64,000 bases of DNA from Candidatus Pacearchaeota archaeon (GCA_017608235.1 JAFCGI010000003.1:44146-108145), one strand, 5' to 3'; shown: positions 39,957 to 57,598, counted from the first letter of the stretch. Notes: generated from the sequence alone by a model not told the origin. Numbers and translations are program-made.

Positions 39957-40478
39957 CTAATTTAATTCCATATGAAAAATTCTTTTTTTATTTTGGATTT
40001 GTTTATCTTTATCTAATATGTCCAAAGAGAATTTTGTTTGAGTTACTCCTAAGTCTTGCAGAAAGCAAAGACATTGATAATAGATGCTATTTTTAGATTC
40101 TTCTAAATTATAAAGATTTGAAACTGTTAGATTTAGTAATCTTTGTGCTACTAAATTCTCAAGATCTTGTTCTGATATTGCATTGTAATTACTATATGCT
40201 ATTAATTTATGTGCATCGCTTGGGAATATCTCATAATTTATGGAATATACTATAGTTGTATTAGCATTGACTTTATAATTTAGTCTTAAATTATGTTCTC
40301 TTCTATCTATAAATGCTATTTTCTTTTTAAAAAGATAAGATAGATTGCTCTCAGTATAGTGATTATTCAGAGGACCTTTAATTTCATCTTTTGTAATTAT
40401 ATATTTAGTATTTGGATTATTCTGGAGGTACTTTTTAAAGGCCCTCTTTCTAACATTTATTACTTGCATAAGATACAT
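39957..40478 (-). CDS. Hypothetical protein (last gene of the 8-gene operon)
   Basis: 173 aa with no recognisable motif. Start lies 3 nt after the AAA ATPase stop. Confidence 0.4.
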   Translation of the reverse strand: MYLMQVINVRKRAFKKYLQNNPNTKYIITKDEIKGPLNNHYTESNLSYLFKKKIAFIDRREHNLRLNYKVNANTTIVYSINYEIFPSDAHKLIAYSNYNAISEQDLENLVAQRLLNLTVSNLYNLEESKNSIYYQCLCFLQDLGVTQTKFSLDILDKDKQIQNKKRIFHMELN

Positions 40479-40480
40479 GG

Positions 40481-41677
40481 TTATTTATACTCATAGACTA
40501 GATTTACAAGATCTTGTCCTAATCCTCCCTCACCATTCTTTTTAATATGGTCTTTAGCTTCTTTGATCCAATCTAAGAATACAGATGTGTTAGGGTGATA
40601 AAGTGCATATTCTAAATCTCTGTTGTTAATTGGATCTAAGCTATTAATATCATTATCTTTATTTCTAGCTAATGCTAGTTCTGCTGCAATATTACAAATA
40701 TTTTCAATATCTTTTCCAGTATATATACCAAAGTTATTTGATGCTTGTGCTAATAATTTTAAGTTAACATTTGAACTAATTTTACTTTTTTTAAGTTTAA
40801 CTTTATAAATTTCCTCTATAGCTTTAATATCTGGTTGTGGGACAAATAGTGTTCTATTGAATCTTCTTCTTACTGCAGGATCTATCTTCCAGATATAGTT
40901 TGTGGCACCTATTACAATTGCTGCATGATTATTTTCTTTTATATATTCATCAAAATCAGATAATGAAGTTAGTAGCTGATTAGTTTGGGACTGCGCATAA
41001 TGGGATCTAGTCTTGGTTCTCCTGCCTGCTATTGCATCTATTTCATCTAGTAATACTATACATGGAGAGTATTCTTTTGCTTCTTCAAAAATTGCTTTTA
41101 TGTTTTTTTCTGTATTACCTACATATGGATCTAGTATTTCTGCTAAAGACCTATGAATAAAATATGCTCTTGCTTCACCTGCTGCTGCTTCCACACTAAA
41201 AGTTTTACCACATCCTTGCGGGCCATGAAGCAATATGCTTCCTCCGCTAGATAATCCAAGAGCTTGCCTCTTTTGGCTATAAGTTTGATCTCTTAGTGGA
41301 GTTATGATCATATTATAGATTTGTTCTTTGAAGTAATTCATGCCTCCAATGTCTCTAAAAGTTGTTTTTGGTATTTCTGGCTTTCTGAAGTTTTTCTCAT
41401 AGTCTAGATTTCTTCTTGCTTTAGACTTTCTCTGATTTTTTGGAAATGCGGAAGGTTTATCATCTTCTACATAATATATAGCTTCTATCTTTAATGCTCT
41501 TTTTTTAAGATTTAGTGCTTTTTTTTTAGCATCAAAATCTAAGCTTTCTTTGAATCTTTTACTATATTCAGCTACTGCTGCTTGGTAATTTATTAGTGCT
41601 CCATATAGATCGCCTTTTTTTTCTTTACGCCGTGCTTGAATTTCTAATCTGCGTGCAGAGTCAATCAACTTAATCAC
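40481..41677 (-). CDS. MIT-domain AAA+ ATPase of the Vps4/CdvC (meiotic-clade) type
   Basis: N-terminal MIT-like three-helix region RRLEIQARRKEKKGDLYGALINYQAAVAEYSKRFKE…ALKIEAIYY (compare Vps4 …GNYEEALQLYQHAVQYF…). Walker A LLHGPQGCGKT. Walker B IVLLDEIDA. GATNYIWKIDPAVRRRFNRTLFVPQP matches the Vps4 GATNIPW.LD.AIRRRFE.RIYIPLP. Confidence 0.85.
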   Translation of the reverse strand: MIKLIDSARRLEIQARRKEKKGDLYGALINYQAAVAEYSKRFKESLDFDAKKKALNLKKRALKIEAIYYVEDDKPSAFPKNQRKSKARRNLDYEKNFRKPEIPKTTFRDIGGMNYFKEQIYNMIITPLRDQTYSQKRQALGLSSGGSILLHGPQGCGKTFSVEAAAGEARAYFIHRSLAEILDPYVGNTEKNIKAIFEEAKEYSPCIVLLDEIDAIAGRRTKTRSHYAQSQTNQLLTSLSDFDEYIKENNHAAIVIGATNYIWKIDPAVRRRFNRTLFVPQPDIKAIEEIYKVKLKKSKISSNVNLKLLAQASNNFGIYTGKDIENICNIAAELALARNKDNDINSLDPINNRDLEYALYHPNTSVFLDWIKEAKDHIKKNGEGGLGQDLVNLVYEYK

Positions 41678-41742
41678 CTCCTAGCTATAAAATTTCTAAA
41701 TATATAAAATCAGATTCCAAAAGTTCTGACTCTGGAATCATT

Positions 41743-42360
41743 TTACTCTTCTTCATTTGCTAACGAATTTGATCTGTTCTGTACTGGTCTATATATTTGG
41801 TTTATAAAATCATCCATATTCCCTTCAGCATATTGTGGATCATTATCTAGCTGTTCTCTTTCATAAAGAAGTTCTTGCGAATACTCAGATAGTTCTCTCA
41901 TATTCCCTGCATGGTCATATTTTCTTGAGTTACTAATTATACTAAATAGGCTTTTTTTAGGGATTATGCGTCTGCTATGTTTTGCAACTTTGATTAATTC
42001 TCTATCTGCTTTTTTTCCTATAATACCTGCTTCTGCTCTTGCTGTAGCCTCGCATACAATTAAAAATCTTTCAGCCATTAGATCCATAGCAATTCTTGCT
42101 TGCTCATATATCTCTGACTTAACATTAAGCTCTGCTTCTCCTATCTTTTTATCATTATATTTTTTAGCAGCAACTAATGCTTCTTTTCGCTTTTGTCTAT
42201 AATCCTTACATGCTTCTTCATATAGTGCTTCTATTTTAGTTCTTGAGTTAGTAATGGTATCTATTTTTTTCATTTCCCTATGTTCTTTCCTTATTTTTCT
42301 ATTCTGTTCATAACCTAATGCTTTGAGTGCTTTTTTTCTTCTCATTTTAATAACCTCCAT
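41743..42360 (-). CDS. Small charged alpha-helical protein (candidate ESCRT-III/Snf7/PspA-like; speculative)
   Basis: 205 aa. The N-terminal half is basic (MRRKKALKAL…RKIRKEHREMKK). It is predicted helical with heptad character, and the C-terminus is acidic (…DDFINQ…ANEEE). The ORF overlaps neighbours on both sides. Confidence 0.4.
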   Translation of the reverse strand: MEVIKMRRKKALKALGYEQNRKIRKEHREMKKIDTITNSRTKIEALYEEACKDYRQKRKEALVAAKKYNDKKIGEAELNVKSEIYEQARIAMDLMAERFLIVCEATARAEAGIIGKKADRELIKVAKHSRRIIPKKSLFSIISNSRKYDHAGNMRELSEYSQELLYEREQLDNDPQYAEGNMDDFINQIYRPVQNRSNSLANEEE

Positions 42361-43529
42361 CCTCCCCTACTTTCTTTATAGAGGAAAAGATCATGAAGAA
42401 TATCTGTGGCTATGCTGCCTCTGATGTTAAACTTTTTCTCTAGATAATTTGATTTTATATCAAAGGCATCTACATTATTATAGAGAAAACTTGCAAATGA
42501 ATCTGAGGAGCTTGATCTTTTTATCCAAGTAGAAAAATATTCATTTACTTTGTTATGCATGCAAACTAGCTTATTATTTGTAAGGTTTAATAAGAATATA
42601 GAAGATGTTTCAAATTCATTATTTTCAAGTTTACTTAGATCCAAATTTCTACTGAATTTATTTGTTAGAAGTATTTCTAATTTATATGTTAAAAGGTCTT
42701 CATTAGCTCTTAATATTAGTGAGTTTAAATCTGCATTTTTGGCTTCAGATACATACTTGACAGAAATTGCTAATGGAAACTTTCTATTAGGTCTTAGTGT
42801 TAAACCATAATTATCTATTTCTAGTTGTTTTTGGATTTGTTTTCTTTTTGGTTTTTTATATATGTTTGGAGGAATAAATTCTATTGGAGTTTTAATTAGT
42901 TTATATTGCAAATTTTTAATATATGTTTTTGCAAGATCTGGTAATGGCTCTAAGTCTTTTTTTGCTAAAGTTATAGTTTTATTATATATTGAAGTATTAG
43001 GTTCTATTGTTTCTGAGTTTCCTAATCTATAGAATACGGATTGGATGTTTTCTTGCTCTTTTAGGAGCCAAGATTTATTTAGTATATCTAGGTAAGATTC
43101 TAAACTCTCTAGTTCTGAGTTTAAATTGTTTTTAAATTTTAGTTCTGTAGCTGCTTCTGTAAAATATTTTGATAGCTCCTTATCAAAAAAGAAGATATAG
43201 TTTCTGATATTTTGTGCAAGAGCTATATCTTGTAAATGATAATTTTTTTCTGGAGTAGAGATTAGTTTATCTTGAGTATCTATGTTTTTCTTTAAGAGGA
43301 TTGCCTTGTTTAGAGTTGTTTTTATATTTTGAAAATAAGGGTCATTGCTATCTAAATGTTCAGCCATTAGAGATTCTAGATCTGAAATTGTTTGATTTAA
43401 GCTTAAAATTATATTGGATCTTGCATAAGATGCTTTTCTCTCATATCTTGAGATTACTGCCTCCCAAATATGTGGGAGTATCTTAAATCCAATACTTGTT
43501 ATATTTGTTATAGGTTCAATAGTTGTCAT
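42342..43529 (-). CDS. Hypothetical protein (operon member)
   Basis: 395 aa with no known motif. Tightly packed in the operon. Confidence 0.4.
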   Translation of the reverse strand: MTTIEPITNITSIGFKILPHIWEAVISRYERKASYARSNIILSLNQTISDLESLMAEHLDSNDPYFQNIKTTLNKAILLKKNIDTQDKLISTPEKNYHLQDIALAQNIRNYIFFFDKELSKYFTEAATELKFKNNLNSELESLESYLDILNKSWLLKEQENIQSVFYRLGNSETIEPNTSIYNKTITLAKKDLEPLPDLAKTYIKNLQYKLIKTPIEFIPPNIYKKPKRKQIQKQLEIDNYGLTLRPNRKFPLAISVKYVSEAKNADLNSLILRANEDLLTYKLEILLTNKFSRNLDLSKLENNEFETSSIFLLNLTNNKLVCMHNKVNEYFSTWIKRSSSSDSFASFLYNNVDAFDIKSNYLEKKFNIRGSIATDILHDLFLYKESRGGWRLLK

Positions 43530-43765
43530 AGAAATATTAAGACGATACTAATATAAGTATGAATTTAGCTTAAATTTTCTGAATAAAGACTTCATAAGTT
43601 GTAAGATCTTTCAGTAACTTTTATTTTTATCTAGTGGCAATATGCTAAAATATATATTTTATGTATGTGAGCTATATTTGTATATGTATTTTTTATGTTT
43701 TGAACTTATATATTTTATAGATTATTTAAATATGTCTTTTATAGTTCTCAGGCTAATAGAATATT

Positions 43766-45055
43766 CTAGGGTTTATATTTTTTGTACATATTTAGTTTTT
43801 GTATTTTTTCTTGCAGATCTTCATACTTATCAAAATCTTTGTAAATATTAATTCTTGTATTTTTTACACCACTATTTTTTAATAATTTTCCTATAATCAA
43901 TATACTTGACATTCCATAGAAATCCATATCTGTTAAACAAATATTTGTTTCTCCTAAATAAAAATCATATAGATGGTATACAAAATATGCTATTAATATA
44001 TCGTATGTAGTTATTCCCCCCATACCTCTTTTGCTTTTTCTTGCATCTTCTTGGCGAATCTTACGCCTTATACATCTAGTACCTGGAATTTTTTTAAGAA
44101 CTATATCTATAGCACGTCTATTTTTCTTAAAGCCTTCTAAAAAATCTAAAATCGATATAGTATAGTCTCTAAATCTATAATTAACTACTACACTAAGATC
44201 ATTCTTTACGTGAACATACTTAAAATTATTTTTATTGGTATGAATCACTAACTGGGATAAATATTCTGTTATAATTAGATTTTTTTTATAATGCTCTGCT
44301 TCTTCTTTTGCAAAGTTTAAAAAATCTGATATTATTTCTTTTTGTAATTCATAAATTTCTTTTTGTGACTTATAATTTAACTTTGGATTATTTATTCTTT
44401 CTTCTAAATTAGAAGAATATAGTCTAGAAGGATGTAGTTTTTTTCTTTTTTTAATAAGCGACTTTAATATTTCCTCTTGTCTGTGTGCAGAATCATAATT
44501 GGGATCAATTTCAATAGATTTTCTAATATAATTGAGCGCTTCTTCATACCTCCCAGACCATTTTAAAGCTAGTGCTTTATTATAAAACAAAATAGGATTA
44601 GGTAGTTTTTCTAGAGTTAATGCTTTGTCATAGTATACTATTGCTTCTTTATATTTTTTAAGTTCAGTAAGTATTTTACCTTTTAAATTATAATACTTAG
44701 AATTATTTGGGTCTATTTTAATAGCTTTGTTAATTATTTCTAATGACTCCTGATGATTGTTGGCTTCCCTTACTTTCTTATAATATGCATTTGCAAATTG
44801 TGGATCTATAGATATAGATGGAGCGAGCTTTTTGGCAGAATCCATATCTTTTAGGGCGCTATCTGTTTGATTTAATTTTAAAAGAATTAATGCTCGCTGA
44901 TGGTATGCTCTAGCACTTTCAGAATATTCTGATATGTAGTTATTGATTATTCTCAGAGCTTTTTGATATTCTTTAAGCTTATAAAGTGTTCTTGCTTCTG
45001 CAAACCAGGCATCTTGTTCTATATCCATATTAGTTCTTCCAAGCTTTTTATACAT
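43766..45055 (-). CDS. TPR-repeat protein with a C-terminal domain of unknown function
   Basis: Five or more 34-aa TPR-like units (…AYHQRALILLKLNQTDSALKDMDSAKKLAP…, …NAIKIDPNNSKYYNLKGKILTELKKYKEAIVYYDKALTLEK…). Length 429 aa. Confidence 0.55.
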   Translation of the reverse strand: MYKKLGRTNMDIEQDAWFAEARTLYKLKEYQKALRIINNYISEYSESARAYHQRALILLKLNQTDSALKDMDSAKKLAPSISIDPQFANAYYKKVREANNHQESLEIINKAIKIDPNNSKYYNLKGKILTELKKYKEAIVYYDKALTLEKLPNPILFYNKALALKWSGRYEEALNYIRKSIEIDPNYDSAHRQEEILKSLIKKRKKLHPSRLYSSNLEERINNPKLNYKSQKEIYELQKEIISDFLNFAKEEAEHYKKNLIITEYLSQLVIHTNKNNFKYVHVKNDLSVVVNYRFRDYTISILDFLEGFKKNRRAIDIVLKKIPGTRCIRRKIRQEDARKSKRGMGGITTYDILIAYFVYHLYDFYLGETNICLTDMDFYGMSSILIIGKLLKNSGVKNTRINIYKDFDKYEDLQEKIQKLNMYKKYKP

Positions 45056-47777
45056 TTTCTCTTACCTTGCGATAACAATCGTAAGCTTCTTTAAATTTAC
45101 CTTGTGCTTCGAGTACTTGACCTTTTTGATAGTTTGCTTGTTTATTTTCTGGTTCTAGATATAAAATTGAATCTAAGGTGCTCATTGCATGAGCATATAG
45201 TCTTCGATTGCTATAATACTTTGATATAAAAATTGCTTTATCTAAGTACCCTAAAAAATCCGAATAATAATGAAGTCTGTGCTTTCTTTTATTTTTAACA
45301 AGCTGCCTTTTCATTAGGCTCATAATTGCTGCGCCTATTGCAAATTCTAAATAAGAATAATTTACCAATCCTCCTATTAGTAATACTTCTAATATGTTTT
45401 TTGGATAGATTTTTCGTTTTAATTTCTTAATTTTAGGTGTATGTTTGACTAAAGTATCTAATGCTGTTCTTTTGAAATATCTTTTACCAAGTTTTTTATT
45501 GATTTCTTCAACACTTACTGGTTCCTCATATATTTTTCTCTCATTTAGACCTTGTCGTACAGATATATTTATTTTAGTATCATCTGCAGTATATGTTATT
45601 CTATAATTTTTAAATCTTAAAGTCATACTATTTTTATATATTTGCTCTATCGAAAATGCAGACTTATATAGCCTTGCTTCCATTAATACTAATCTTAATA
45701 TATTTTTAGAAGAAAATCTACAGTTTCTTAGCTTTGATATTTTAGTCTTTGGCAATATTATGTTATATTGCTTTAGAACTGCATCCATATGAATCGGGCT
45801 TAAATCTAGAGCTTTTTTTGGGTCAGTTTTAAAAAGGTACCAAGCCTCTGCATTATATCTGTTTAATTCTAAAGCGCGAGTATATGATTTTATTCTTTGA
45901 TCAGATTCTTGGCGACTTGCTAGATCTAAATAGGCATTAGCTAGTTCTGAAGAAACTTCAGAATTTTTTGCTAATGCTATTGATTTCTCAAATAAATAAA
46001 TTGCTTCCTCTAAATTTTTAGAAGATTTCCGTTTATTATATATTTTATGCCCTAGTTCATAGAATGCTTCTGCTGCAATCTTTTTGATTTCTTTATTAGA
46101 AGAATAACTTAGAGCTTTTTCGAAATGTTTGATGGCTTTTCTATGTTTTTTCTTATTTAGTACTTTTTTAGCTTGTCTAAAATGAATTTGGGAGATATAG
46201 CTTTCTGCAGCAAAATTTTTGTAAGGTAGTATTGCTTCCAAATAGTTTAGGGCAGACTTATACTTTTTTTTATTTATAAGCTGTTTTGCTAGGCTAAACC
46301 AAATTTTTGGGCTGATATCATTATTTTTCTTTAGATAAATACGCTTAGCTCTCTTACTAAACTTATATGCTTTTTTATGCTGTCCATCTTTTTCTAATGC
46401 TAATGCCTTATAATATAAAGCCTCATAATTCTTAGAATCTAGTTCTATAGCCTTTTCAGAGTTTATGATTGCTCGTTTATAACTATTTAATTCAATATTT
46501 GTTTTAGCTTCTAAAATTCTTAGCTGAATTTGATTTGGATTATAGTCTAATGCTCTATTTATTAATCTTAATTTTCGTTTCAAAAAGATACTATTTTTTT
46601 TATCTTCTGGTTTTGTTTGCAAATTTGCAAAACTAAAATAGGCATCTGCTAGATCTGGTTTTATTTCATTTGCTCTATCTGGTGCAAATACTAATATTTC
46701 TTCAAGAATTTTTATTCTTTCTTTGAGGTTAGTTTCAGTTTTAGAAATGCCTATTCTTGCGTTTATAGAAAAAGGATCATATTTTAATGTTTGATCAAAG
46801 AATTTTTTAGCTTTTTTAAGATTTTTTTGTCTTAGAGCTAACTTTCCTCGTATCTCTAAAGTATATGGGTCTAAATTTTGTTCTAGAAGTTCTTCTAATT
46901 TCATATCTGCAGACGTATCAGCAAATTCATCAATAGAATTATTATTTGAGAATTGAAGCTTACTAATTTGCTCGCTAAAAAATAAATTTAGTGCTGTAAG
47001 CTGATCTATTTTTTTATAGGCTAAGTCTATGAAGTTATCTATTTTTTTATTGCATCTTTCTTTGTTAATCTTTGATTTATTATTTGGCGATAACTTTTTA
47101 CTTAATTCGTAATGTTTTGATATAATTTTTTTTTCTTTATTTTTAAGTTTAACTATATCTAAAATTACTTGAAGATAGTCTAGAACTTCTTTTTGTTTTT
47201 CTAAAAAATCAGATTGTATGTCTTGATATTTTATACTTAGTGCATTACTTAACTTGTATATTTTCTTATTCCAAGAAATATTTGACTTTAAATCTTTTTT
47301 TAATTGTCTTAGATTTTTAGCTTTTAGTATTTTTCTTACTTTTTGATCTTTTTTTGCAACCAAAGATGTTACAAATGGATTATTAAAATATTTAGTAACT
47401 GTATAATTTTGGCTGTCTTCTGGCATAATTATTTCTTGTCCAAATGATAATGCAGTATTTAGAAAAATCTCATTTAGGTCTGAAAATAAATGCTTATATA
47501 GTTCATAACTATGAGCTAATATATGTGCATTGTCTAGTATTTTAAATTCTTTTGCACCTAGATTAGCACTCTCTTCTAATATATCAAGCATATATAATGC
47601 TTTATTTAGTTTTTTATCTCTTCGTCTATTATAGAAGTTTAAATATGATTGATATTTTATATCTTGTTTTGCTATATTTTTTTTAGTAATCTTTTGTAAT
47701 CTAGCTTTGATTTTTTTTAGATTCTTCTTTCTACGCTTATTTTTCTTTGCTTCAGATATAAATTCCTTCCTATTCAT
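45048..47777 (-). CDS. Large TPR-repeat protein (909 aa) with an N-terminal Lys-rich coiled-coil region
   Basis: Many TPR units (…YEALYYKALALEKDGQHKKAYKFSKRAKRI…, …AEAWYLFKTDPKKALDLSP…). The C-terminal region has a hydrophobic segment LLIGGLVNYSYLEFAIGAAIMSLM. Confidence 0.55.
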   Translation of the reverse strand: MNRKEFISEAKKNKRRKKNLKKIKARLQKITKKNIAKQDIKYQSYLNFYNRRRDKKLNKALYMLDILEESANLGAKEFKILDNAHILAHSYELYKHLFSDLNEIFLNTALSFGQEIIMPEDSQNYTVTKYFNNPFVTSLVAKKDQKVRKILKAKNLRQLKKDLKSNISWNKKIYKLSNALSIKYQDIQSDFLEKQKEVLDYLQVILDIVKLKNKEKKIISKHYELSKKLSPNNKSKINKERCNKKIDNFIDLAYKKIDQLTALNLFFSEQISKLQFSNNNSIDEFADTSADMKLEELLEQNLDPYTLEIRGKLALRQKNLKKAKKFFDQTLKYDPFSINARIGISKTETNLKERIKILEEILVFAPDRANEIKPDLADAYFSFANLQTKPEDKKNSIFLKRKLRLINRALDYNPNQIQLRILEAKTNIELNSYKRAIINSEKAIELDSKNYEALYYKALALEKDGQHKKAYKFSKRAKRIYLKKNNDISPKIWFSLAKQLINKKKYKSALNYLEAILPYKNFAAESYISQIHFRQAKKVLNKKKHRKAIKHFEKALSYSSNKEIKKIAAEAFYELGHKIYNKRKSSKNLEEAIYLFEKSIALAKNSEVSSELANAYLDLASRQESDQRIKSYTRALELNRYNAEAWYLFKTDPKKALDLSPIHMDAVLKQYNIILPKTKISKLRNCRFSSKNILRLVLMEARLYKSAFSIEQIYKNSMTLRFKNYRITYTADDTKINISVRQGLNERKIYEEPVSVEEINKKLGKRYFKRTALDTLVKHTPKIKKLKRKIYPKNILEVLLIGGLVNYSYLEFAIGAAIMSLMKRQLVKNKRKHRLHYYSDFLGYLDKAIFISKYYSNRRLYAHAMSTLDSILYLEPENKQANYQKGQVLEAQGKFKEAYDCYRKVRENV

Positions 47778-48760
47778 TCTTCTTCAGTAGCTTTTTCGCA
47801 CAGCGAGTCCAGCGCATAATAAATAGCTTCTTCTTCAAAATCTTCTCCAATCATTGAGTCTAAAAATTTATCATAGAAATCTGTGTGAATACTGCTTAGA
47901 TCTAATGTATCTGAAAGTACAAAATCTCTTGCCCTATTTAAGATAAGCTTGTTAAGTTCCATTAATTCATTTATTCTGTAATATGAGAAGCTGCAAAATT
48001 CAGTAATTATTTTAGTTTCTAGATTTCTATTATACTTTGCATCTTCACTATCTTTGCTACATAATTTGGCATCAGCTTCATAAAAAGAGATTAATACTTC
48101 TGCTTCGTCTAGCTTTTGATAAATCCTTTTAATAACTTTTTTTCTATAACTAATAACTTTTTTTTGCAGATTTATAAATTTATTATGTAATCTCTTAGTC
48201 CTTTCTTCACTTTCTAGCATATTTGTTGGTATAATTCTATTCCATTTTAAACTAGATTTTAAGAATTTTCTAATATATTTAAAATTAATATCTTCTTTTT
48301 TAAGTTCTGGCTTATTTATATTTAAGGTAAAGAAAGCATCTTTGTATTCATTAAGCAATATATTATCTTTTGTATCATACTTTAATTCCTTAAGGAATGA
48401 TTCTGTTAGATAACTTAATTCCTCTTTTAAATTATTAGTCCATATAGGAGCATTATTATCATAATTAAATACATATCCATCAACCCATGTTCCTACTGGG
48501 TGCGATATGTTAGCACCCCTTTTTGCATTATCTGAGATTTTGCTATTTAGTTTAATTATATTTTCAAAACACTTATCTAGCTGCTTATAATATTCACTTC
48601 TAATTTCTTTATGTTTTTCTGCAAAAGAATTAAATTTTGTTCTTGCTTTTTTTGCTTTTTTTTTTCTTTTATTATATTTTTTACTCTCCATATTTAATCT
48701 TTTTCTAGTTTTAGCTAATTGACTCATAATATCACCTTTGGAGATCTTTAGATATATCAT
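47774..48760 (-). CDS. Hypothetical coiled-coil protein (operon member)
   Basis: 328 aa. Lys-rich N-terminus. No known motif. Confidence 0.4.
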   Translation of the reverse strand: MIYLKISKGDIMSQLAKTRKRLNMESKKYNKRKKKAKKARTKFNSFAEKHKEIRSEYYKQLDKCFENIIKLNSKISDNAKRGANISHPVGTWVDGYVFNYDNNAPIWTNNLKEELSYLTESFLKELKYDTKDNILLNEYKDAFFTLNINKPELKKEDINFKYIRKFLKSSLKWNRIIPTNMLESEERTKRLHNKFINLQKKVISYRKKVIKRIYQKLDEAEVLISFYEADAKLCSKDSEDAKYNRNLETKIITEFCSFSYYRINELMELNKLILNRARDFVLSDTLDLSSIHTDFYDKFLDSMIGEDFEEEAIYYALDSLCEKATEEE

Positions 48761-50744
48761 ACATTTCAGACTGTAGCCTGTCTAAAGTTACATTATATCT
48801 TCTTAGAGTAGAAACATATTTTGTGATTCCCATGCTAATTTGTAGATTGTCTTTTGCAGCATATAATATGCTATTTACTTTCCGAATCTCTTTTATTTCG
48901 CATGTTATTGCCTGAACTATAGATTTAAGATTTGAAATTAAATCTTCATGCAATTTTTCTTTGGCAGAACTATATGATTCATATTCTTCTTTTTTTTGTT
49001 TGGTCTCATAATATATATATTTGGAAAATTTTTTTCTATGTTGTTTTATTTTTTTAAGTTCTTGTTTTATAATTTTAGATATAGTTTTTTTTCTCTTTCT
49101 CAGAATTTGTTTCTTATTAAATCTAATGCCTAACTTAGATAATTCATTCCAAATCTCAGGCTCATTCTTTCCATGAATTAAATAATTTTGGATATGTTTT
49201 ACTTTTTCTTTTTTATTTTTAGTTAAGTATATGAGTTCCAAAAATGTTTCTGCTTTTGTATTAAATGTGTTAAAATTATTTGGCTTTATTTCTTTAGAAA
49301 GTATTGTTAATGCTGAATATGCGTTTATATTATATGCTTCAGCTTTAATCTTATCCTCTACTACTTCTGCAAGAGTTATCTGTGCATGAGCTAAGGATAG
49401 TACTATATCATTATAGTCTGATTGTGCTTTTTCTTTTGGGAAAGGGCTTTCTTCTGCTTCAACCTTCTGTTTAGTATTTTCCTGCGCATTCAATAGACCC
49501 TTCATTCCACGTTCAAGAAGATCTAAAAGTTTTGTTTTTTCGACTTTACTTAAATTTTGAGAATAGTTTCTTAGAAATCCAGATAGTTCTGAAATATAAA
49601 ATGCTGCTATACTAGTAATTTCTAATTTTGAGTTAGAAATAACTAATAAGTCATCTGCTAATTCTATAAGAGTAGTTCTGAAATATTCTTTTACTTTTTC
49701 ATAATTATGATGCTTATTTTCATTTATTTCTGACAATTTAAAGTTAATAGCGCTTCTTAAGGTATTTACATAATTAACTACTCTCTCAAGAATTTCTTGA
49801 TCAATTTTAAGATCTTTTCCAAAATTAAATAAGTGCGTTTTTGGAATTTTCTCTGGTATTGTTCCTCTTTTTATACTTAGCGCCTCTTGGAATAAGTCTG
49901 CATGCGAATGAAATTCCTCAGGGCGGAATAAATACCTAGTGCATTCTTTTTCTAGCTCTATAAGATTTTTCTTAGGTATTACTATATCTGTAGATGCTAT
50001 GTAATATGAATGAGCCATTCTGCAAATAGCTTTAGATAATTCTGCTACTGCTTCTTCTCTTTTTTCATCATCATCTTTATTTTTTAGGATGTCTGCTAAG
50101 CTTGAAAGAGTATATCTTGTATATATCAAAAATAATTCGAATGCCTCATATCTTGGGATATTTATTTTTGGCAGATCTTCAAATTCTTCAAATACATCAT
50201 AGCCCATTAAAATTTTATGGCAATTCCAAATATAAGAGAAAAGGAATTTACTAGCTAAACCTCGCCAATTATTAATTTGTTTTTTAGATCTACCGATTGC
50301 TCCACTTTTAAATGCATCTATATTTTTAGGATTTATGCTATTCTTATCTCTTACCCATATTTGCGCCTTAACTTTACATCCGAGGTCTGCATTTATCTTT
50401 TCAAGATCTTCATTCAGCTTATCTTCTAAAGTGTTAATTTCTGTTTCTATGTCTTTAATTTTGTTAAATTCAATTGATCCATAATGTTCCTTATATAGTT
50501 CAGGATTATCTTTGTATTCCTCTAAGGCATTATATACATTTGGATTAACTAAGAAATCTATATCAAAATCAGAATATTTATTCATGTCCCCTGAATAAAT
50601 GCTACCAGAACTAAATGCGCTATGGCAATAAAAGCAAGAAGCATCATCATCTTCTATTGAAAATTTAGAGTCCATAAAGTAATTGCAAAATTTGTCTTCT
50701 AGAAAGCTTGGAATATCTTGAATAGTTTGGATAGGTTTTGACAT
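48732..50744 (-). CDS. Large protein with an N-terminal Pol-beta-superfamily nucleotidyltransferase signature and a long helical C-terminal region
   Basis: SAFSSGSIYSGDMNKYSDFDIDFLV fits hG[GS]x9-13DhDh (GS + 10 aa + DFDID). Preceded by a CFYCHS Cys/His cluster. A candidate third acidic residue lies in IWVRDKN. Length 670 aa. First gene of the operon. Confidence 0.55.
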   Translation of the reverse strand: MSKPIQTIQDIPSFLEDKFCNYFMDSKFSIEDDDASCFYCHSAFSSGSIYSGDMNKYSDFDIDFLVNPNVYNALEEYKDNPELYKEHYGSIEFNKIKDIETEINTLEDKLNEDLEKINADLGCKVKAQIWVRDKNSINPKNIDAFKSGAIGRSKKQINNWRGLASKFLFSYIWNCHKILMGYDVFEEFEDLPKINIPRYEAFELFLIYTRYTLSSLADILKNKDDDEKREEAVAELSKAICRMAHSYYIASTDIVIPKKNLIELEKECTRYLFRPEEFHSHADLFQEALSIKRGTIPEKIPKTHLFNFGKDLKIDQEILERVVNYVNTLRSAINFKLSEINENKHHNYEKVKEYFRTTLIELADDLLVISNSKLEITSIAAFYISELSGFLRNYSQNLSKVEKTKLLDLLERGMKGLLNAQENTKQKVEAEESPFPKEKAQSDYNDIVLSLAHAQITLAEVVEDKIKAEAYNINAYSALTILSKEIKPNNFNTFNTKAETFLELIYLTKNKKEKVKHIQNYLIHGKNEPEIWNELSKLGIRFNKKQILRKRKKTISKIIKQELKKIKQHRKKFSKYIYYETKQKKEEYESYSSAKEKLHEDLISNLKSIVQAITCEIKEIRKVNSILYAAKDNLQISMGITKYVSTLRRYNVTLDRLQSEMYDISKDLQR

Positions 50745-50982
50745 AGGGAATCACTTTTTAGTATTATTAAGTAACTAATCCTATATTTTTTTAAACATTT
50801 CTAAATTATATATTCTAGTCACTCAATAAACTTAAGACGCTACCTATATTTTAATGTAAGTTCTAAACTATATATTAATAAATTTTAAACATTCTGAAAT
50901 TGTTTTCAGTATTTAGATATACTTAGGATGTGGTCGTTATTTAGGACATCTAAATTAGAATTAAAATAATAATTGTATTACG

Positions 50983-51567
50983 CTAAGACATTTCTTTGCA
51001 GTATTGTTTTGCTCTTTGTAATAATTTGCTCAGGAATTTTTTTCCTGCTTTTGTCTTGAATCTCGAAGCTTTTTCTTTTTCAAAAAAGTCTAAAAACCTA
51101 ATGTAGTCTTTTTTAGAAAATGTAGGAGTTACTCTATCTACATTAATTTGTCCTAAGCTATCTGCTTCAAAAACTAGTTGCCCATCTGGAGAAGAAGTTA
51201 TTTTATCTAAATTATCATGAGTTCCTACTAAATAGACTATCTTTTCAATTTCTTCTGTAGAGTATTCTCTAATTTCACTTAATATTATTTTAGATAATTT
51301 TATTCCATTATCCATTTGCTTTTGTTTTAATTGTTCCTGAGATTCAAAACTAAGATTTTTTTTATTGAGAATGTTTGCTCCTCCAATATCATGTAAATAC
51401 ATTGTAGAAATTAGAATCTTTGGATCTCCTTCTTCATAAACCAATAGCTTTTTCATCCAATAGACTGTAGCCATTGTGTGTGGTATATCCCAGTTAGGGC
51501 GAGCTTTATCTAAATATTTTATGGCTTCATTCTTTAGTTTTTCCTCTAGTCCTGCATTTAGATCCAT
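50983..51567 (-). CDS. HD-domain protein
   Basis: H…STMYLHDIGG (HD)…GTHDNLDK…D pattern. Length 194 aa. Directly upstream (same strand) of the operon promoter region. Confidence 0.6.
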   Translation of the reverse strand: MDLNAGLEEKLKNEAIKYLDKARPNWDIPHTMATVYWMKKLLVYEEGDPKILISTMYLHDIGGANILNKKNLSFESQEQLKQKQMDNGIKLSKIILSEIREYSTEEIEKIVYLVGTHDNLDKITSSPDGQLVFEADSLGQINVDRVTPTFSKKDYIRFLDFFEKEKASRFKTKAGKKFLSKLLQRAKQYCKEMS

Positions 51568-51657
51568 AATTTAAAAAAGATCTACATATACTTTAATGAA
51601 TACACCTAAACTTTGCTGTAATGTTTTAAAGAAGATAGGAAAAGTTTTTATTTTAGT

Positions 51658-52959
51658 ATGTGTTTGGCGGAAATGATGAAATCCTTTACAATTAAAGATA
51701 TAGAAGATGCAATAAAATCCAGTGCAGATTATATGCTTTCCTTGCAAAAACCAGAGGGGTTCTGGGGAGTGGATAAGGTAGAACATAGAGAACCTCCATA
51801 TTATCAAAAAAAAATAGTTCTTACTGCTCAAGCAATATCTGTATTAGTTTTGTCTGAAAGTAAAAACCTTAAAGCAATTCAGAAGGGGCTTAGATTTTGT
51901 ATTAATGAAGAACTAAATAATAATGATGTAATTGACTTATGGGCTTGGAAGTCTATTGCGCTAGGTTTTTCAAATACCAAGATTGCTAGAGATAAAATGG
52001 CTAAAGTAGATAACTATATTCTTTCCAAACAAGATCCAAAAGGATTTTGGCCTAATTATCCTATTACAAACAACTTATCTAATAAAATAGTAGTTAGTGC
52101 ATTTAGAAATAAGATATATGATAAAAGCCTTAAACTAATTAAAAGCTGGTTTTTAAATAATAAAGCTAAAGATGGAATTGGTTGGGGGTTTAATAGCTTA
52201 TCTAATAAATCAGAAATAACATTTACTAATAATGTGCTATTGGCTTTATTTATTTTAGGATTAAATCCAGATAATAAAGATCTTAGAAAAATATTAGACT
52301 TTATATTTAAAAAACAAAGAAAAGATGGAGGTTGGCCTTCCTCTAAAATGACAATCTCTAACAAATCTACATGTTATTCAACTTCTTTATCTCTAGCAAG
52401 TTTGCTTTGTCTTAGAGGAGAATGTAAAGAAACAGACAGAGCAATAAAATTTCTGTTAGACATGCAAAATGAAGATGGAGGTTGGCCTTTTGTAAAAGGA
52501 GAGGAATCAAAAATATATGTTACTTATTATGTTGCTAGAACATTAAGTTTTTATCTGTATTTGAAAAAGATGCATAGGACTTCTAAAATAAGGTTTTTAA
52601 AAAATTATATGAGTGTATCTCAGATTAATACTTTCTTGTTTAGTGAATTTGATGATGCAGTTATTAAGGATTTTAGAAAGAGCATGTTTGAGGCTATTTT
52701 AAATTCAAGAACTTTGGGTGTTACAAAAAAAGCTATTGATAGAAGAGTGAATATTCTTAGATTATTAAATGAGCGCGGAGATATGGATATAGCAGAGATT
52801 ATAGATGCTTTAAAAGAATTTCCAGAATATAGTTATTTGAATAAAAAATCACATATGACTCAAATAAAACTTGATGTAGAGTATCTTAGAGATATGAATT
52901 TATTAAATGTGCAAGATTATAGATATTACCTAATTTATAATTTTTTTGAAAACAATTGA
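51658..52959 (+). CDS. Prenyltransferase/squalene-cyclase-type alpha/alpha-toroid repeat protein with a C-terminal HTH-like region
   Basis: Repeated xxDGGW(P) units: QKPEGFWGV, QDPKGFWPN, AKDGIGWGF, RKDGGWPSS, NEDGGWPFV. Length 433 aa. Confidence 0.5.
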   Translation: MCLAEMMKSFTIKDIEDAIKSSADYMLSLQKPEGFWGVDKVEHREPPYYQKKIVLTAQAISVLVLSESKNLKAIQKGLRFCINEELNNNDVIDLWAWKSIALGFSNTKIARDKMAKVDNYILSKQDPKGFWPNYPITNNLSNKIVVSAFRNKIYDKSLKLIKSWFLNNKAKDGIGWGFNSLSNKSEITFTNNVLLALFILGLNPDNKDLRKILDFIFKKQRKDGGWPSSKMTISNKSTCYSTSLSLASLLCLRGECKETDRAIKFLLDMQNEDGGWPFVKGEESKIYVTYYVARTLSFYLYLKKMHRTSKIRFLKNYMSVSQINTFLFSEFDDAVIKDFRKSMFEAILNSRTLGVTKKAIDRRVNILRLLNERGDMDIAEIIDALKEFPEYSYLNKKSHMTQIKLDVEYLRDMNLLNVQDYRYYLIYNFFENN

Positions 52960-52989
52960 AAGGAAAGTAACTAAGAAAATAAACTATAA

Positions 52990-54252
52990 TCATAAATTAT
53001 ATGACTCTTTTATTATTTCTGCTATATCTTTAGGGCTTAAATTAAATGCCCTATCATCTTTGGGCCCAAATAAAATAGTATCTTTTCCAAACCAAGGCGC
53101 ATTATTTTCTTTAGTTAATTTAGGCATAATTTTAATAAGTAAGTATGGGCTATTTGGCTGGTCTGGTCCTTGGTCTGCTGATGCGAGATTATATCCTATA
53201 TTTGTTTTAATTAAAGCAAATCTTGTATTATATATCCATTTACCATATCCTTCTGCCAACCAAAAAGGAGCATCAGGAGAGATATCTAATGGACCTCCAC
53301 CGTTTGGAGTTAGATCAAAATATACAAACTTTTTATTAAGATATGTTTTTGCTCTTTTAGTGGCTTCATAGTTTATATCTTTTAATCTCCTAACAAAAAT
53401 ATGTGCATATATTTCATTTTTAAATTCAGACTCTTCTATTTGGCGAACATAGGTATTGATAAGTTGTCCGCTTGGTTCTCTTGCAGTAAAATACAAATCT
53501 GAAAGAGTATCTATAGATATTTCCATGTATTTATTATTTTTGAAAGTTTCTGTATTTCTAGTTATATCTTCAAATATATTTTCTGTTATAGCTAATAATG
53601 TTTTGTAGCCATCTATCACTGCACGTGCTGTGCCATCAATATTTGCAGGTGGGAATCCTTTTAGAATTTCAATTGCTGGAGTATCTCCAAATGGCTTTAT
53701 GTGTTCATTAAATTCGAGTAGAGTGGCTTCAAATATTTTTTGTAATAATGAAAAAGCTATTTTTTCATAATTTTCTGTTATTTTATAATCTTCATTAAAA
53801 ATTTGTCCACCAAATGCAGTATTGTCTGAGAAGAATGCTACTTCCTTTATTAATTTTGAATATTTTTTTGCAAAATTAGGGTTTAAGAAACTAGTCATTG
53901 ATAATACTCCATCAGGATCAAAGTTTGATTGTCCTGTAATTACTATAGTATTATCTGAAGTATAGTTTGCTTTACTTAGACCTTTTAATGAATCTATAAC
54001 TCCTGCAGTAGCAGTTTCATAAGATTTATTATATGCTCCATGATGATCTATTACTTTAACCCATTCTGGTAGAAAATCTTCTATCTCTTCTCTAGATCCA
54101 GAAAACAAAGGATAGTCTACTACTAGAATATTTTTATTTTCTCTAGACGCATCTAATTTCTGAATAATTTCTTCATTAGATCCGAATCCAAATTGATGGT
54201 TTATTATTCCAATAGTCTTATCAGAATTTAAAATAAGTTCTAAATCTTTCAT
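52990..54252 (-). CDS. DHH-superfamily phosphoesterase-like protein (divergent)
   Basis: VIDHHG (the DHH motif) and NGGGPLD (GGGH-like) are present. The motif-I region is IINHQFG rather than the Dx D pattern. Length 420 aa. Confidence 0.45.
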   Translation of the reverse strand: MKDLELILNSDKTIGIINHQFGFGSNEEIIQKLDASRENKNILVVDYPLFSGSREEIEDFLPEWVKVIDHHGAYNKSYETATAGVIDSLKGLSKANYTSDNTIVITGQSNFDPDGVLSMTSFLNPNFAKKYSKLIKEVAFFSDNTAFGGQIFNEDYKITENYEKIAFSLLQKIFEATLLEFNEHIKPFGDTPAIEILKGFPPANIDGTARAVIDGYKTLLAITENIFEDITRNTETFKNNKYMEISIDTLSDLYFTAREPSGQLINTYVRQIEESEFKNEIYAHIFVRRLKDINYEATKRAKTYLNKKFVYFDLTPNGGGPLDISPDAPFWLAEGYGKWIYNTRFALIKTNIGYNLASADQGPDQPNSPYLLIKIMPKLTKENNAPWFGKDTILFGPKDDRAFNLSPKDIAEIIKESYNL

Positions 54253-54464
54253 TTTATTGCCTTCAAAAGTTGCTGTAAAAAAGAATGGTTAAAAAAGTTT
54301 CTATAATAGATAACAGAGCCAGTATGGTTTTCTATAATAGATAAAAGAGCTGATATATTTAGCCTGAATCAGAGTCTGATCTTCTAGTGTGCAACTGAAG
54401 ATATTATTTATCAGGACTGGAATATATAAAGAATATATCATATAGATATTAATTGTTTATTATA

Positions 54465-54770
54465 TTAGTCTGTCATGATTATTACTTGTGCATGAGGTAT
54501 GTTATCTATAAAAACTATATTTTCCTGGTTTACAAGGCCTGCTTCTATTCCTGCTTGAACTGCTTCTTTTCCAATTAAATTTATGTTAACAGCTTTCCTT
54601 AGAAGTGATATAATTTCCTTCTTAGTAGCTTGTTCTCCTTGGTAAAAACGAGGATTTACAAAAAACTCTATTTTAGTTTCTGAAGATCTAAGAGTTTTTC
54701 CTAAAAGAGATTTATCACAGACTGCTATCATAAATCCATGTTTTCTGTTATATAATTTATAGTATAACAT
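54465..54770 (-). CDS. DUF424-like small conserved archaeal protein
   Basis: 101 aa; …IAVCDKSLLGK…NIPHAQ… is a family resemblance from memory only. Confidence 0.35.
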   Translation of the reverse strand: MLYYKLYNRKHGFMIAVCDKSLLGKTLRSSETKIEFFVNPRFYQGEQATKKEIISLLRKAVNINLIGKEAVQAGIEAGLVNQENIVFIDNIPHAQVIIMTD

Positions 54771-55441: not shown

Positions 55442-55570
55442 ATAGATGTAAAAATGACTTAAGAATAAAAGGTTTTCCACAGGAAACATTGGAAATTAAG
55501 GCGTTTGGAATACAAATATTTTAAATATAGGAAAGTCTTCAAGATTTTTAATGGCTTTGGAGATGCGCTC

Positions 55571-57598
55571 ATGCTAGATTATGAAGATATGATTACAAAG
55601 TTTAGAACTTTCTTTGAGAGATATTATTATAATTCTCTTCTGACTAATATTAAGAAAGGCAAGAAATATATTAATATTAAATTTGGAGATTTAGCTAAGT
55701 TCGACTTAGACTTATCTGAGGAGTTGATTTCTAAGCCTCAGGAGATTTTAGATTTAGCTGAGAAGTCTCTAAAAGAGTTTGATATTCCTGAAGCTGAGCA
55801 TCCTATTAGAGTTAGAGTTATTGATTTGCCTCAAGCCTATTATCTTTCTATTCGAAATATTCGAAGTAGTCATTTGGGAAAGTTAATTTGGACTGAGGGT
55901 TTGATAAGACAGGCATCTGATATCAGACCTAAAGTTACGATTGCTACATTTGAGTGTCCTAGCTGTAATGCACAGATTGTTGTAGAACAAAGAGATACAA
56001 GTTTCAAGGAACCTGCAAGATGTCAGTGTGGCAGGAAAGGTAAATTTAGACTATCTAGCAAGAAGATGGTTGATGTTCAGAGATTAGTTATAGAAGAAGT
56101 CCCTGAGAGTTTAAGCGGAGGGGAGCAGCCAAAAAGAATCAGAGCATATCTTTCAGAAGATCTTTTGGATGCAGATCTAGAGAAGAGAAGATATCCTGGA
56201 AATAAAGTTAGGATTGCTGGTGTGATTAAAGAGGTTCCAGTATCTACAAGAACTGGAGGTAGAAGTACAACCTATGATTTAATGATTGATGCGAATTCTG
56301 CAGAAACTGTTGAAGAAGAGTTTGGAGAACTTCAGATATCTGCTAAAGATGAAGAGTTAATTAAGGATCTAGCTTCAAAGTCAAATATTTTTGAAAAGTT
56401 AGCTAGGAGCATTGCTCCAAGTATTTATGGGTTGAATGAGATTAAGCAGGCGATTGTTTTGCAGTTGTTTGGAGGTACAAGAAAAACTAGAGAGGATGGT
56501 ACAAGTACAAGAGGAGATATTCATATATTCTTGGTTGGAGATCCTGGAGCAGGCAAGTCTCAGATTTTAAGTTATGTTTCTAATCTAGCACCAAAAGCAA
56601 GAATGGTAACTGGAAGAGGCGCTAGCGCAGCTGGAATCACAGCAAGTGTTGTTAAGGATGAATTTATGGGCGGCTGGGCTTTAGAAGCTGGCGCACTTGT
56701 TTTAGCGAATAATGGAATAGCATTGCTAGACGAACTAGATAAAATCTCAAGAGAGGATACTTCAGCAATGCATGAAGCTATGGAGCAACAGCGTGTTACT
56801 ATTAGCAAAGCAAATATTCAAGCAACTCTAAGAGCACAAACTTCTATTCTTGCGGCTGCAAATCCAAAGTTTGGAAGGTTTGATCCTTATAGTCCTATAG
56901 CTTCACAAATAGATCTTCCTCCCACGCTGATTAACAGGTTTGATCTTATCTTTACTGTGAGAGATATTCCAAACATAGAAAAAGATGAATTAATAGCTAG
57001 GCATGTTTTGGAGTTACATAGAGATGATGATGCTAAAAAAGCAGATATTAGTCCTGAGGTAATTAGGAAATATATTGCATATGCAAAGCAGCATTGCAAG
57101 CCAGTGTTAAGTTCTGGTGCTCTAGATGAGATTAGAGAGTTTTATGTTAATTTAAGAAGTACAGCTGCCTTGGAAGATTCTGAAGTAAAATCAATTCCAA
57201 TTTCTGCAAGACAGCTTGAAGCTCTAATCAGGCTGTCGGAAGCAAGCGCTAGAATCAGGCTTTCTGATAAAGTAACCAAAAGGGATGCACAGAGAGCAAT
57301 TGGATTGCTAAGAAGCTGTATGGAAGCAGTAGCACTAGATGTGGAAACTGGTAAGTTTGATATAGATAGAATTGCTACAGGAATCACAGCTACTGATAGA
57401 AGTAGGATTACGATAGTTAGAAGAATTATTGATGAGTTAGAAGGTAGAGTTGGAAAAAACATTCCAATTTCAGATATTCTAAATGAAGCAGAGAATGAAG
57501 GACTAGAAAAAGCTAAGGCAGAGGATGTTATTGAAAACTTAAAGAAAAAAGGAGACATCTTTGAACCTAAGCCTGGATTGATTCAGAAGATTGGTTAG
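55571..57598 (+). CDS. mcm: MCM replicative helicase
   Basis: Zn finger CPSCN…CQCG. Walker A IHIFLVGDPGAGKSQ. Walker B and arginine finger region ALLDELDK…SILAAANP. Winged-helix C-terminus. ATG at 55571; the track ORF starts at TTG 55505. Confidence 0.9.
   Translation: MLDYEDMITKFRTFFERYYYNSLLTNIKKGKKYINIKFGDLAKFDLDLSEELISKPQEILDLAEKSLKEFDIPEAEHPIRVRVIDLPQAYYLSIRNIRSSHLGKLIWTEGLIRQASDIRPKVTIATFECPSCNAQIVVEQRDTSFKEPARCQCGRKGKFRLSSKKMVDVQRLVIEEVPESLSGGEQPKRIRAYLSEDLLDADLEKRRYPGNKVRIAGVIKEVPVSTRTGGRSTTYDLMIDANSAETVEEEFGELQISAKDEELIKDLASKSNIFEKLARSIAPSIYGLNEIKQAIVLQLFGGTRKTREDGTSTRGDIHIFLVGDPGAGKSQILSYVSNLAPKARMVTGRGASAAGITASVVKDEFMGGWALEAGALVLANNGIALLDELDKISREDTSAMHEAMEQQRVTISKANIQATLRAQTSILAAANPKFGRFDPYSPIASQIDLPPTLINRFDLIFTVRDIPNIEKDELIARHVLELHRDDDAKKADISPEVIRKYIAYAKQHCKPVLSSGALDEIREFYVNLRSTAALEDSEVKSIPISARQLEALIRLSEASARIRLSDKVTKRDAQRAIGLLRSCMEAVALDVETGKFDIDRIATGITATDRSRITIVRRIIDELEGRVGKNIPISDILNEAENEGLEKAKAEDVIENLKKKGDIFEPKPGLIQKIG

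Follow-up and report, generated by a model that had tools for sequence, protein, structure and literature searches.

T670, an orphan protein with a nucleotidyltransferase-like motif, is the first gene of a four-gene operon in a genomic island of a Pacearchaeota-like archaeon

Results

The T670 open reading frame

We analyzed a window of 64,000 nucleotides from a Candidatus Pacearchaeota archaeon (GCA_017608235.1 JAFCGI010000003.1:44146-108145; all positions given here are those of the window) and focused on one open reading frame (ORF), hereafter T670, which encodes an orphan protein of 670 residues on the minus strand (48732..50744, stop codon included). T670 is the first gene of an operon of four genes within a lineage-specific island, and it carries near its N-terminus a short motif of the kind found in nucleotidyltransferases (NTases) of the Pol-beta superfamily. 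The ORF had been pointed out in a preliminary description made from the sequence alone, and its position and length were confirmed; its start can be assigned without ambiguity, since only 2 more codons lie between the ATG and the upstream end of the stop-to-stop frame. The peptide that had been quoted as the active-site signature, FSSGSIYSGDMNKYSDFDIDFLV, indeed corresponds to residues 44-66 of T670, and CFYCHS (residues 37-42) lies directly ahead of it.

Downstream of the NTase-like part, a five-helix bundle is predicted for residues 154-290 (49875..50285, minus strand). The helices span residues 154-179, 198-221, 226-251, 258-272 and 275-288 in a low-confidence AlphaFold model of full-length T670, and the bundle may represent a substrate-binding or HEPN-like domain. 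The remainder of the protein, residues 291-670 (48735..49874, minus strand), is a Lys/Glu-rich, helical and coiled-coil-like C-terminal region in which scans with Pfam, NCBIfam, PADLOC and PHROG revealed no recognizable domain. Overall, T670 consists of 12% Lys and 10% Glu. The preliminary description had characterized the approximately 550 residues outside the motif region as helical and free of known domains; the second part of this statement agrees with the four profile collections, while the helical character comes from the low-confidence AlphaFold model alone. Both a signal peptide and a membrane segment were looked for in T670 and neither was found, which indicates that the protein is cytoplasmic.

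The GS-X10-DXD motif

The NTase signature of T670 covers residues 47-61, GSIYSGDMNKYSDFD, encoded at 50562..50606 on the minus strand, with G47/S48, G52, S58, D59 and D61 as the diagnostic positions. It reads G47-S48-x3-G52-x5-S58-D59-F-D61-I, which is a GS-X10-DXD motif with Gly52 and Ser58 as accessory residues, and thus matches the strict pattern G-S-x3-G-x5-S-D-h-D-h of the MNT (minimal nucleotidyltransferase) or PF01909 type, in which 8 positions are specified. This strict pattern occurs once in the six reading frames of the window and in none of 2000 composition-preserving shuffles, and its analytic expectation is 9.7e-5 for the 18.9k residues of the window proteome and 1.5e-3 for a genome of 300k residues. 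As a control on real sequences, 2 Mb of related DNA were fetched, and the approximately 9,200 ORFs in it were searched with a relaxed form of the pattern. Only four ORFs were matched, and all four are PF01909 NTases that score above the curated cut-off (29.8-45.3 bits), so that no false positives were obtained. The preliminary description had used the looser pattern hG[GS]-x(9-13)-DhDh, which is expected 0.115 times per window proteome. Taken literally, this pattern fails in T670 because Ser46 precedes G47, but the stricter GS-X10-DXD form does match. The proposed resemblance to a Pol-beta-superfamily active site is real and statistically unusual, and PF01909 is the best Pfam match for the N-terminal 156 residues.

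Both the definition of the GS-X10-DXD motif and the roles of its residues come from minimal NTases of the MntA type, enzymes that modify proteins by AMPylation (PMC7641770). In MntA, G27/S28 and S38 contact the phosphates of ATP, and D39, D41 and D71 serve as ligands for two Mg2+ ions (PMC7641770). T670 possesses equivalents of the Gly, the two Ser and the first two Asp residues. Three acidic residues had previously been proposed to form the active site of T670. D59, D61 and D63 are all present on one strand, but by the register of MntA (S-D-x-D) the catalytic pair comprises D59 and D61 only, and the third carboxylate would be expected on a strand some 30 residues farther on. A candidate for the third metal ligand is Glu92 in the sequence SIEFNKI (50469..50471, minus strand), which is the single h-[D/E]-h site between 15 and 80 residues past D61. 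Its distance from D61 is +31, compared to +30 for D71 of MntA (PMC7641770) and +18 to +33 for verified NTases of DPANN archaea. T670 thus belongs to a DPANN archaeon (Pace-/Woesearchaeota-like) and is restricted to its lineage, and its first approximately 135 residues most likely form a very diverged minimal NTase domain of the Pol-beta type. That these residues adopt an NTase fold, taken by itself, we consider probable.

Search for relatives

A word-seeded search with full-length T670 in 5.8 billion clusters and an exhaustive phmmer search in 1.84 billion representatives each returned T670 alone, and the N-terminal 337 residues gave no match at E <= 10. Relatives were found neither in GTDB genomes and IMG/VR nor among the sequences of the PDB. 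The same was true for a phmmer search (E <= 10) against all ORFs of 160 fetched loci, which comprised 80 loci of DPANN archaea anchored on the MCM helicase gene and 80 metagenome loci anchored on an AAA ATPase gene. Orphan genes abound in the genomes of DPANN archaea. Since T670 is known as a singleton from one metagenome-assembled genome (MAG), nothing general can be concluded from it yet.

Profile searches and structure prediction

Several observations weigh against an NTase function of T670. T670 has no homologues, which means that conservation or covariation provides no support for the motif and that there is no proof of selection acting on it. Furthermore, every positive line of evidence stems from one block of 15-23 residues, just ahead of which Ser46 takes the place of the usual hydrophobic residue before GS; and about one h-[D/E]-h site is expected by chance, which makes the assignment of Glu92 a weak one. 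The PF01909 model (NTP_transf_2), for which the curated gathering threshold is 21 bits, gave 14.0 bits on full-length T670, where it was not the top match, and the corresponding E-value of 0.067 is not significant over the approximately 60 proteins of the window. On the N-terminal 156 residues, PF01909 was the top Pfam match with 18.4 bits (E 0.0028), which is under the cut-off and also below the score of the weakest verified NTase of the related genomes (24 bits). When both flanks of the motif were shuffled and the 23-residue block was kept, scores of 16.9 and 15.5 bits were still obtained in two of four variants. Shuffling of the N-terminal flank alone left the score unchanged (18.6 bits), shuffling of the C-terminal flank alone reduced it to 14.4-14.9 bits, and replacement of G47, S48, D59, D61 and D63 by Ala abolished the match. 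The PF01909 score is thus made by the motif block and therefore provides no independent evidence for the fold. These shuffle and mutation controls also hold a caution, namely that a sub-threshold Pfam match which appears to be independent can be the motif itself.

Two further comparisons led to the same region. A local hidden Markov model, built iteratively from 12 NTases of related DPANN genomes, gave T670 8 bits over residues 47-113, with the motif residues alone being truly matched, and hhalign against the same 12 NTases aligned residues 38-68 only. The part of the profile that represents helix 1 and strand 1 was unmatched in T670. As for structure prediction, the single-sequence AlphaFold model of full-length T670 had a predicted local distance difference test (pLDDT) score of 39.8, and a crop of residues 1-190 reached a pLDDT of 42.9 and a predicted template modelling (TM) score of 0.43. 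A Foldseek search of the PDB with the T670 model was empty (best E 0.36, TM score <= 0.21).

These are the observations to be expected if the motif were a chance or decayed resemblance, and if T670 were a non-enzymatic helical or coiled-coil scaffold of a fast-evolving island with an N-terminus that has neither the fold nor the activity of an NTase. Such an explanation would account for the fact that three profile methods find similarity confined to the motif block and that the models are of low confidence, mostly helical and without a structural match. It would also fit the status of T670 as a singleton for which there is no evidence of purifying selection, as well as the nature of the remaining operon genes, which encode coiled-coil and TPR proteins. 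However, it has to accommodate a strict motif with an expectation of no more than about 1e-4 per window and about 1.5e-3 per genome, and the absence of false positives among about 9,200 real ORFs. Moreover, the strand-turn-helix-strand arrangement predicted around the motif and the acidic residue at MntA-like spacing would have to be further coincidences. We regard this explanation as the main rival of the NTase reading, and as less likely than the latter.

The AlphaFold crop contains helices at residues 10-25, 46-51, 68-88, 99-121 and 154-180, and strands at residues 38-43, 60-66 and 125-131. In this predicted order, as in a minimal NTase, strand 1 leads into the GS turn, and a short helix connects the turn to strand 2 with the DXD residues; the model is too weak to serve as evidence. 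The AlphaFold and Foldseek results neither confirm nor contradict the fold. The use of an alignment of generic NTases as input for AlphaFold was considered and dropped as circular. Nothing relevant was obtained when T670 and its segments were compared to PADLOC, NCBIfam, PHROGs and PDB sequences. Likewise, the models for SMODS/CD-NTase, Cas10, CCA-adding enzymes, HEPN/DUF86, KNTase_C and AadA_C did not match any segment of T670, even at E <= 10. A confident match to a fold other than that of NTases did not turn up either, and the NTase interpretation survives these searches, unproven.

The non-canonical poly(A) and uridylyl transferases (Cid1, Trf4, PAP) carry a G-S-x3-G-x5-S-D-h-D motif as well, and have their third Asp about 55-60 residues past the DXD. 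T670 could be an NTase that acts on RNA 3' ends, whether it adds poly(A) or poly(U) in the manner of the non-canonical polymerases or performs a CCA-like tailing reaction, with a PAP-associated or RNA-binding helical part and a Lys-rich tail that binds RNA. The verified DPANN NTases that bear the motif do give weak matches to MTPAP-like_central, and the order of an NTase followed by a helical domain, the very basic C-terminal stretch and the overall Lys content of T670 would suit such an activity. Against this, not even at E <= 10 did T670 match PAP_assoc, MTPAP-like_central, tRNA_NucTransf2 or any RNA-binding family. It also lacks an h-D-h site about 55-60 residues past the DXD, since its sole candidate, E92 at +31, has the spacing of the MNT enzymes, and its operon supplies it with TPR and coiled-coil partners rather than with RNA-processing factors. 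An RNA-tailing function of T670 is thus improbable in our view.

Two other short motifs of T670 were inspected. The residues CFYCH (37-41; 50622..50636, minus strand) are most simply taken as the predicted beta-strand 1 ahead of the GS turn, and they coincide with the strand at residues 38-43 of the low-confidence AlphaFold crop. The Cys/His cluster that had been postulated at this position found no support: it consists of C37-x2-C40-H41 with C20 at a distance, and CxxC occurs 16 times in the proxy proteome of the window. No zinc-finger, haem or other metal-binding family matched. A haem-c site at CxxCH was considered and rejected, because T670 has no signal peptide or membrane segment and CxxC is common. 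The second motif, RPEEFH (residues 274-279; 49908..49925, minus strand), is the single Rx4-6H of T670 and is located at the start of the last helix of the predicted bundle. With about 33 occurrences per window proxy proteome, Rx4-6H is not significant. In the HepT motif R-phi-xxxHxY, the Arg is followed by a polar residue and the Tyr is the acceptor (PMC13000451, PMC7641770). A HEPN reading of RPEEFH was rejected because RPEEFHSH has Pro where the polar residue belongs and His in place of the acceptor Tyr, and because Rx4-6H is common. T670 had no HEPN/DUF86 match at E <= 10, and none was observed in the scanned neighbours at the thresholds used.

The T670 operon

As had been proposed, T670 is the first gene of a tightly coupled operon, which consists of four genes and has its own AT-rich upstream region. 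The second gene, g328 (47774..48760, minus strand), encodes a coiled-coil protein of 328 residues and overlaps the 3' end of T670 by 29 nucleotides, or begins 4 nucleotides past the T670 stop codon if Met12 is the start. The third gene, g909 (45048..47777, minus strand), overlaps g328 by 4 nucleotides and encodes a protein of 909 residues with a g328-like N-terminal module that is followed by TPR repeats (TPR_2, E 6e-17). The last gene of the overlapping unit, g429 (43766..45055, minus strand), encodes a TPR protein of 429 residues (TPR_2, E 2e-24); it overlaps g909 by 8 nucleotides, and the TPR parts of both proteins are similar to each other (E 1e-6). The overlaps between T670, g328, g909 and g429 indicate that these genes are co-translated. 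We observed that g328 is paralogous to the N-terminal approximately 270 residues of g909 (46878-47777), with a Smith-Waterman z-score of 10.9 that was reached by none of 200 shuffles. In BLASTP, 272 residues of the two proteins align collinearly with 23% identity (E 0.002). The operon thus contains a duplicated module. An apparent similarity between the middle region of T670 and the N-terminus of g909 was rejected, since it is confined to a patch of 30 residues.

The spacer upstream of T670 (50745..50982, read on the minus strand) comprises 238 bp, is AT-rich and contains TATA-like runs as read from the sequence, and a Shine-Dalgarno-like element, GTGAT, is present 7 nucleotides ahead of the ATG of T670. 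We infer that this spacer holds a putative promoter and ribosome-binding site of the operon. A scan for bacterial (sigma-70) promoters and terminators, a model that is not applicable to archaea, performed no better than on shuffles.

The 17.3-kb island

The window has a GC content of about 0.30 and contains an archaeal signal recognition particle RNA and an MCM helicase gene (55505..57598), the closest GTDB relatives of which are found in MAGs of Pacearchaeota, Woesearchaeota and other Nanoarchaeota (up to 65% identity), which identifies the source as a DPANN archaeon. To place T670 in its genomic context, every ORF of the window was mapped against the 80 related DPANN loci that are anchored on MCM. 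The gene for aIF2-beta (36703..37131) and a conserved gene for a protein of 101 residues (54465..54770) belong to the conserved neighbourhood of MCM, and 50 of the 80 loci hold both. In 48 of these 50 loci the two genes are adjacent, and the gap between them has a median length of 256 bp and never exceeds 1.5 kb. In the present window, they are separated by the 17.3 kb of the island (37162..54467), and the ORFs within it had no counterpart in the 80 related loci. Since the flanking genes are adjacent elsewhere and the ORFs between them lack counterparts, T670 is located in a lineage-specific insertion. This also explains why the synteny approach via MCM yielded no counterpart of T670, as the region is an insertion that is absent from the relatives. 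The GC content of the island (0.26-0.29) is slightly under that of its flanks. No att-like direct repeats were found to flank it, and the four island proteins that were tested had no viral relatives.

A gap of 236 bp divides the T670 operon from four more genes on the same strand. One of these encodes a single-domain AAA ATPase (40481-41677, minus strand), of which residues 3-374 align to positions 6-361 of the 370 positions of the CdvC/Vps4 model with 134 bits, compared to a cut-off of 650, and which scores 107.7 bits on the NCBIfam model for the anti-phage protein IteA, compared to a cut-off of 510. By eye, its N-terminal approximately 100 residues appear MIT-like. A close orthologue of this ATPase was not found, the best non-self matches being AAA domains of CDC48 with at most 40% identity. 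Its nearest relatives in the fetched metagenome loci are 34% identical and bacterial, for example in locus L081. At 9611-12517 of this high-GC bacterial contig, the gene for an AAA ATPase that has a TPR-like N-terminus precedes one for a TPR protein in which several segments are hydrophobic; the pair is unrelated to the island, and such a pairing recurs in L082. The proteins of 205 and 395 residues that are encoded beside the AAA ATPase gene of the island belong to no family.

Several other features of the island were noted. At its aIF2-beta edge, a tandem repeat with a period of 57 nucleotides (37213-37411; 3.5 copies, 71% matches) lies inside two overlapping ORFs (37162..37440, minus strand; 37210..37467, plus strand), in which it would encode peptide repeats of 19 residues. 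A protein of 275 residues (38734-39561, plus strand) contains HELGHFYGL followed by HCNNRDCIM, which by eye is an archaemetzincin-like zinc-protease signature, and matched no Pfam family at E <= 0.01. Near the left part of the island, an HNH endonuclease of 94 residues (39620-39904, minus strand; PHROG E 6e-15) is possibly a remnant of a mobile element. On the other side of T670, an HD-domain protein is encoded just upstream (50983-51567, minus strand; Pfam HD, E 0.002, sub-threshold). Divergently from it, and also inside the island, lies a gene for a protein of 433 residues (51658-52959, plus strand) with alpha/alpha-toroid repeats of the prenyltransferase or squalene-hopene-cyclase type (E 1e-13 to 1e-10). 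Next comes a gene for a protein of 420 residues (52990-54252, minus strand), which has a VIDHHG motif, a sub-threshold match to DHH (E 0.024) and a match to DUF6687 (E 0.0011). The HD-like and DHH-like proteins have no sequence relatives in the PDB, and they are possibly nucleotide or phosphoester hydrolases. Elsewhere in the window (19505-19568, minus strand), the Rfam tRNA model scored just over its threshold (30.4 bits, model positions 7-64) at a site not called by ARAGORN, which may represent a truncated or atypical tRNA.

The gene content of the island raises the possibility that T670 is a CD-NTase or cGAS/DncV-like synthase of a second messenger in an island-encoded defence system, in which the HD-like and DHH-like proteins would degrade the signal and the AAA and TPR proteins would be effectors or sensors. 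A strain-specific insertion such as that of 17.3 kb is a typical setting for defence genes, the HD protein is encoded directly upstream of T670 on the same strand with the VIDHHG protein nearby, the AAA ATPase matches the IteA model (at a score far below the cut-off), and an HNH endonuclease gene is present at the island edge. On the other hand, neither T670 nor its neighbours matched SMODS/CD-NTase, Cas10, GGDEF or PADLOC models, no effector domain of the SAVED, CARF, STING, TIR or patatin type was recognizable in the island, and the HD and DHH matches are sub-threshold and without PDB relatives. In addition, the Ser-Asp-x-Asp form of the motif and the acid spacing of +31 fit enzymes of the MNT type, and no viral or defence-island relatives of the island genes were present among those fetched. 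We consider a second-messenger synthase very improbable, and the role in nucleotide signalling that had been suggested for T670 in the preliminary description gained no specific support.

Discussion

The interpretation that we favour, tentatively and with somewhat less than even confidence, is that the N-terminus of T670 is a very diverged, MntA-like minimal NTase, that a helical bundle for substrate binding and then a long scaffold come after it, and that it acts in a complex with the operon partners, where the acceptor of the nucleoside monophosphate (NMP) would be a hydroxyl group of a protein or, with lower probability, the 3' end of an RNA. In the proposed layout, helix 1 and strand 1 lead to the G47-S48 turn, a short helix connects this turn to strand 2 with S58-D59-x-D61, and a strand with E92 follows. 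By analogy to MntA, G47/S48 and S58 would hold the phosphates of the nucleoside triphosphate, and D59 and D61, probably joined by E92, would be the ligands of two Mg2+ ions. If catalytically competent, T670 would move an NMP, most likely AMP, onto a hydroxyl group. The five-helix bundle (residues 154-290) would be the substrate-binding part, and the Lys/Glu-rich tail (residues 291-670) would serve as a scaffold that keeps T670 in a complex with g328, g909 and g429. The acceptor would most likely be a protein side chain on T670 itself or on one of its partners, resulting in regulation of the AMPylation type, with an RNA 3' end as the second choice. While the ORF, the motif with its rarity, the orphan status of T670, the structure of the operon, the paralogy of g328 and g909 and the insertion of the island have been shown, the fold, the catalytic competence, the role of E92, the nucleotide, the acceptor and the complex are inferred.

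A more far-reaching idea is that T670, g328, g909 and g429 constitute an undescribed NTase-centred module, in which a minimal NTase embedded in a helical scaffold of about 530 residues nucleotidylates a partner that the TPR and coiled-coil proteins keep in place. This module, encoded on a hypervariable 17-kb island that also carries genes for a MIT/Vps4-like AAA ATPase and for HD/DHH-like hydrolases, might be a DPANN-specific system for conflict or host interaction that has no sequence relatives in the present databases. We grant this idea a small chance of being correct. If the NTase interpretation of T670 is true, an MntA-type catalytic hairpin can persist in a protein that has been stripped of all other detectable similarity, within a large helical scaffold and alongside TPR partners. 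Such a minimal NTase hairpin in a 670-residue architecture and in an operon of this kind would be unprecedented. It would help to annotate 'dark matter' genes of DPANN archaea, and it might represent a new module for protein AMPylation.

Comparison with known systems

The archaeal class I CCA-adding enzyme consists of an NTase head, a tRNA_NucTransf2 neck, and a PAP/25A-associated body and tail, altogether about 450 residues. With 670 residues and no match to the tRNA_NucTransf2 neck or the PAP-associated body and tail, T670 is not a CCA-adding enzyme, in agreement with the preliminary description. NTases of the KNTase/AadA/Lnu type combine their NTase domain with a helical domain, KNTase_C or AadA_C, and scans of residues 36-295 and of residues 157-340 of T670 (E <= 10) detected neither of the two. 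By eye, an 'L-x-G' helix at residues 176-182 of T670 resembles that of the aminoglycoside and lincosamide NTases. With the CD-NTases and cGAS/DncV, T670 has in common the membership of the Pol-beta superfamily that is implied by G[GS]...DxD alone. It differs from them in the flavour of the motif, in length and in the absence of Cap or effector genes, and neither T670 nor six of its neighbours matched SMODS (Pfam) or PADLOC.

Parallels are also offered by winged helix-turn-helix (wHTH)-NTase and NTase-helical proteins of related DPANN genomes, of which we collected 12 ORFs (in loci L020, L021, L022, L037, L038, L046, L066, L070, L072 and L076). These proteins share the GS...SDhD residues with T670, and several of them end in hhLxGY, compared to ILMGY at residues 178-182 of T670. 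However, PF01909 gives these 12 proteins 24-45 bits, and PF18765 matches them too. The fused MNT-HEPN protein FhepTA of Shewanella has 276 residues, with the MNT domain at residues 1-132 and the HEPN domain at residues 136-276, in which the R-phi-xxxHxY motif is kept (PMC13000451). T670 resembles FhepTA in the order of its parts, an N-terminal NTase motif and then some 140 residues predicted as helical, with an Rx4H near the end of the bundle, where HEPN domains have their RNase motif. We take this likeness as no more than a lead. It is distinguished from FhepTA by RPEEFHSH at this position, by the lack of a HEPN/DUF86 profile match and by approximately 380 extra residues.

The best counterpart is MntA itself. 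MntA is a protein of about 100-150 residues that is encoded beside the gene for a small HEPN (DUF86) toxin, whereas T670 has 670 residues, no adjacent HEPN gene and coiled-coil and TPR proteins as partners, and does not resemble MntA beyond the motif. Within the motif, the GS-X10-DXD arrangement is identical, with a Ser before the first Asp in both proteins (S38 of MntA, S58 of T670). A candidate counterpart of D71 of MntA at about +30 is E92 of T670, and the low-confidence AlphaFold crop predicts a strand-turn-helix-strand placement of the motif like that of MntA.

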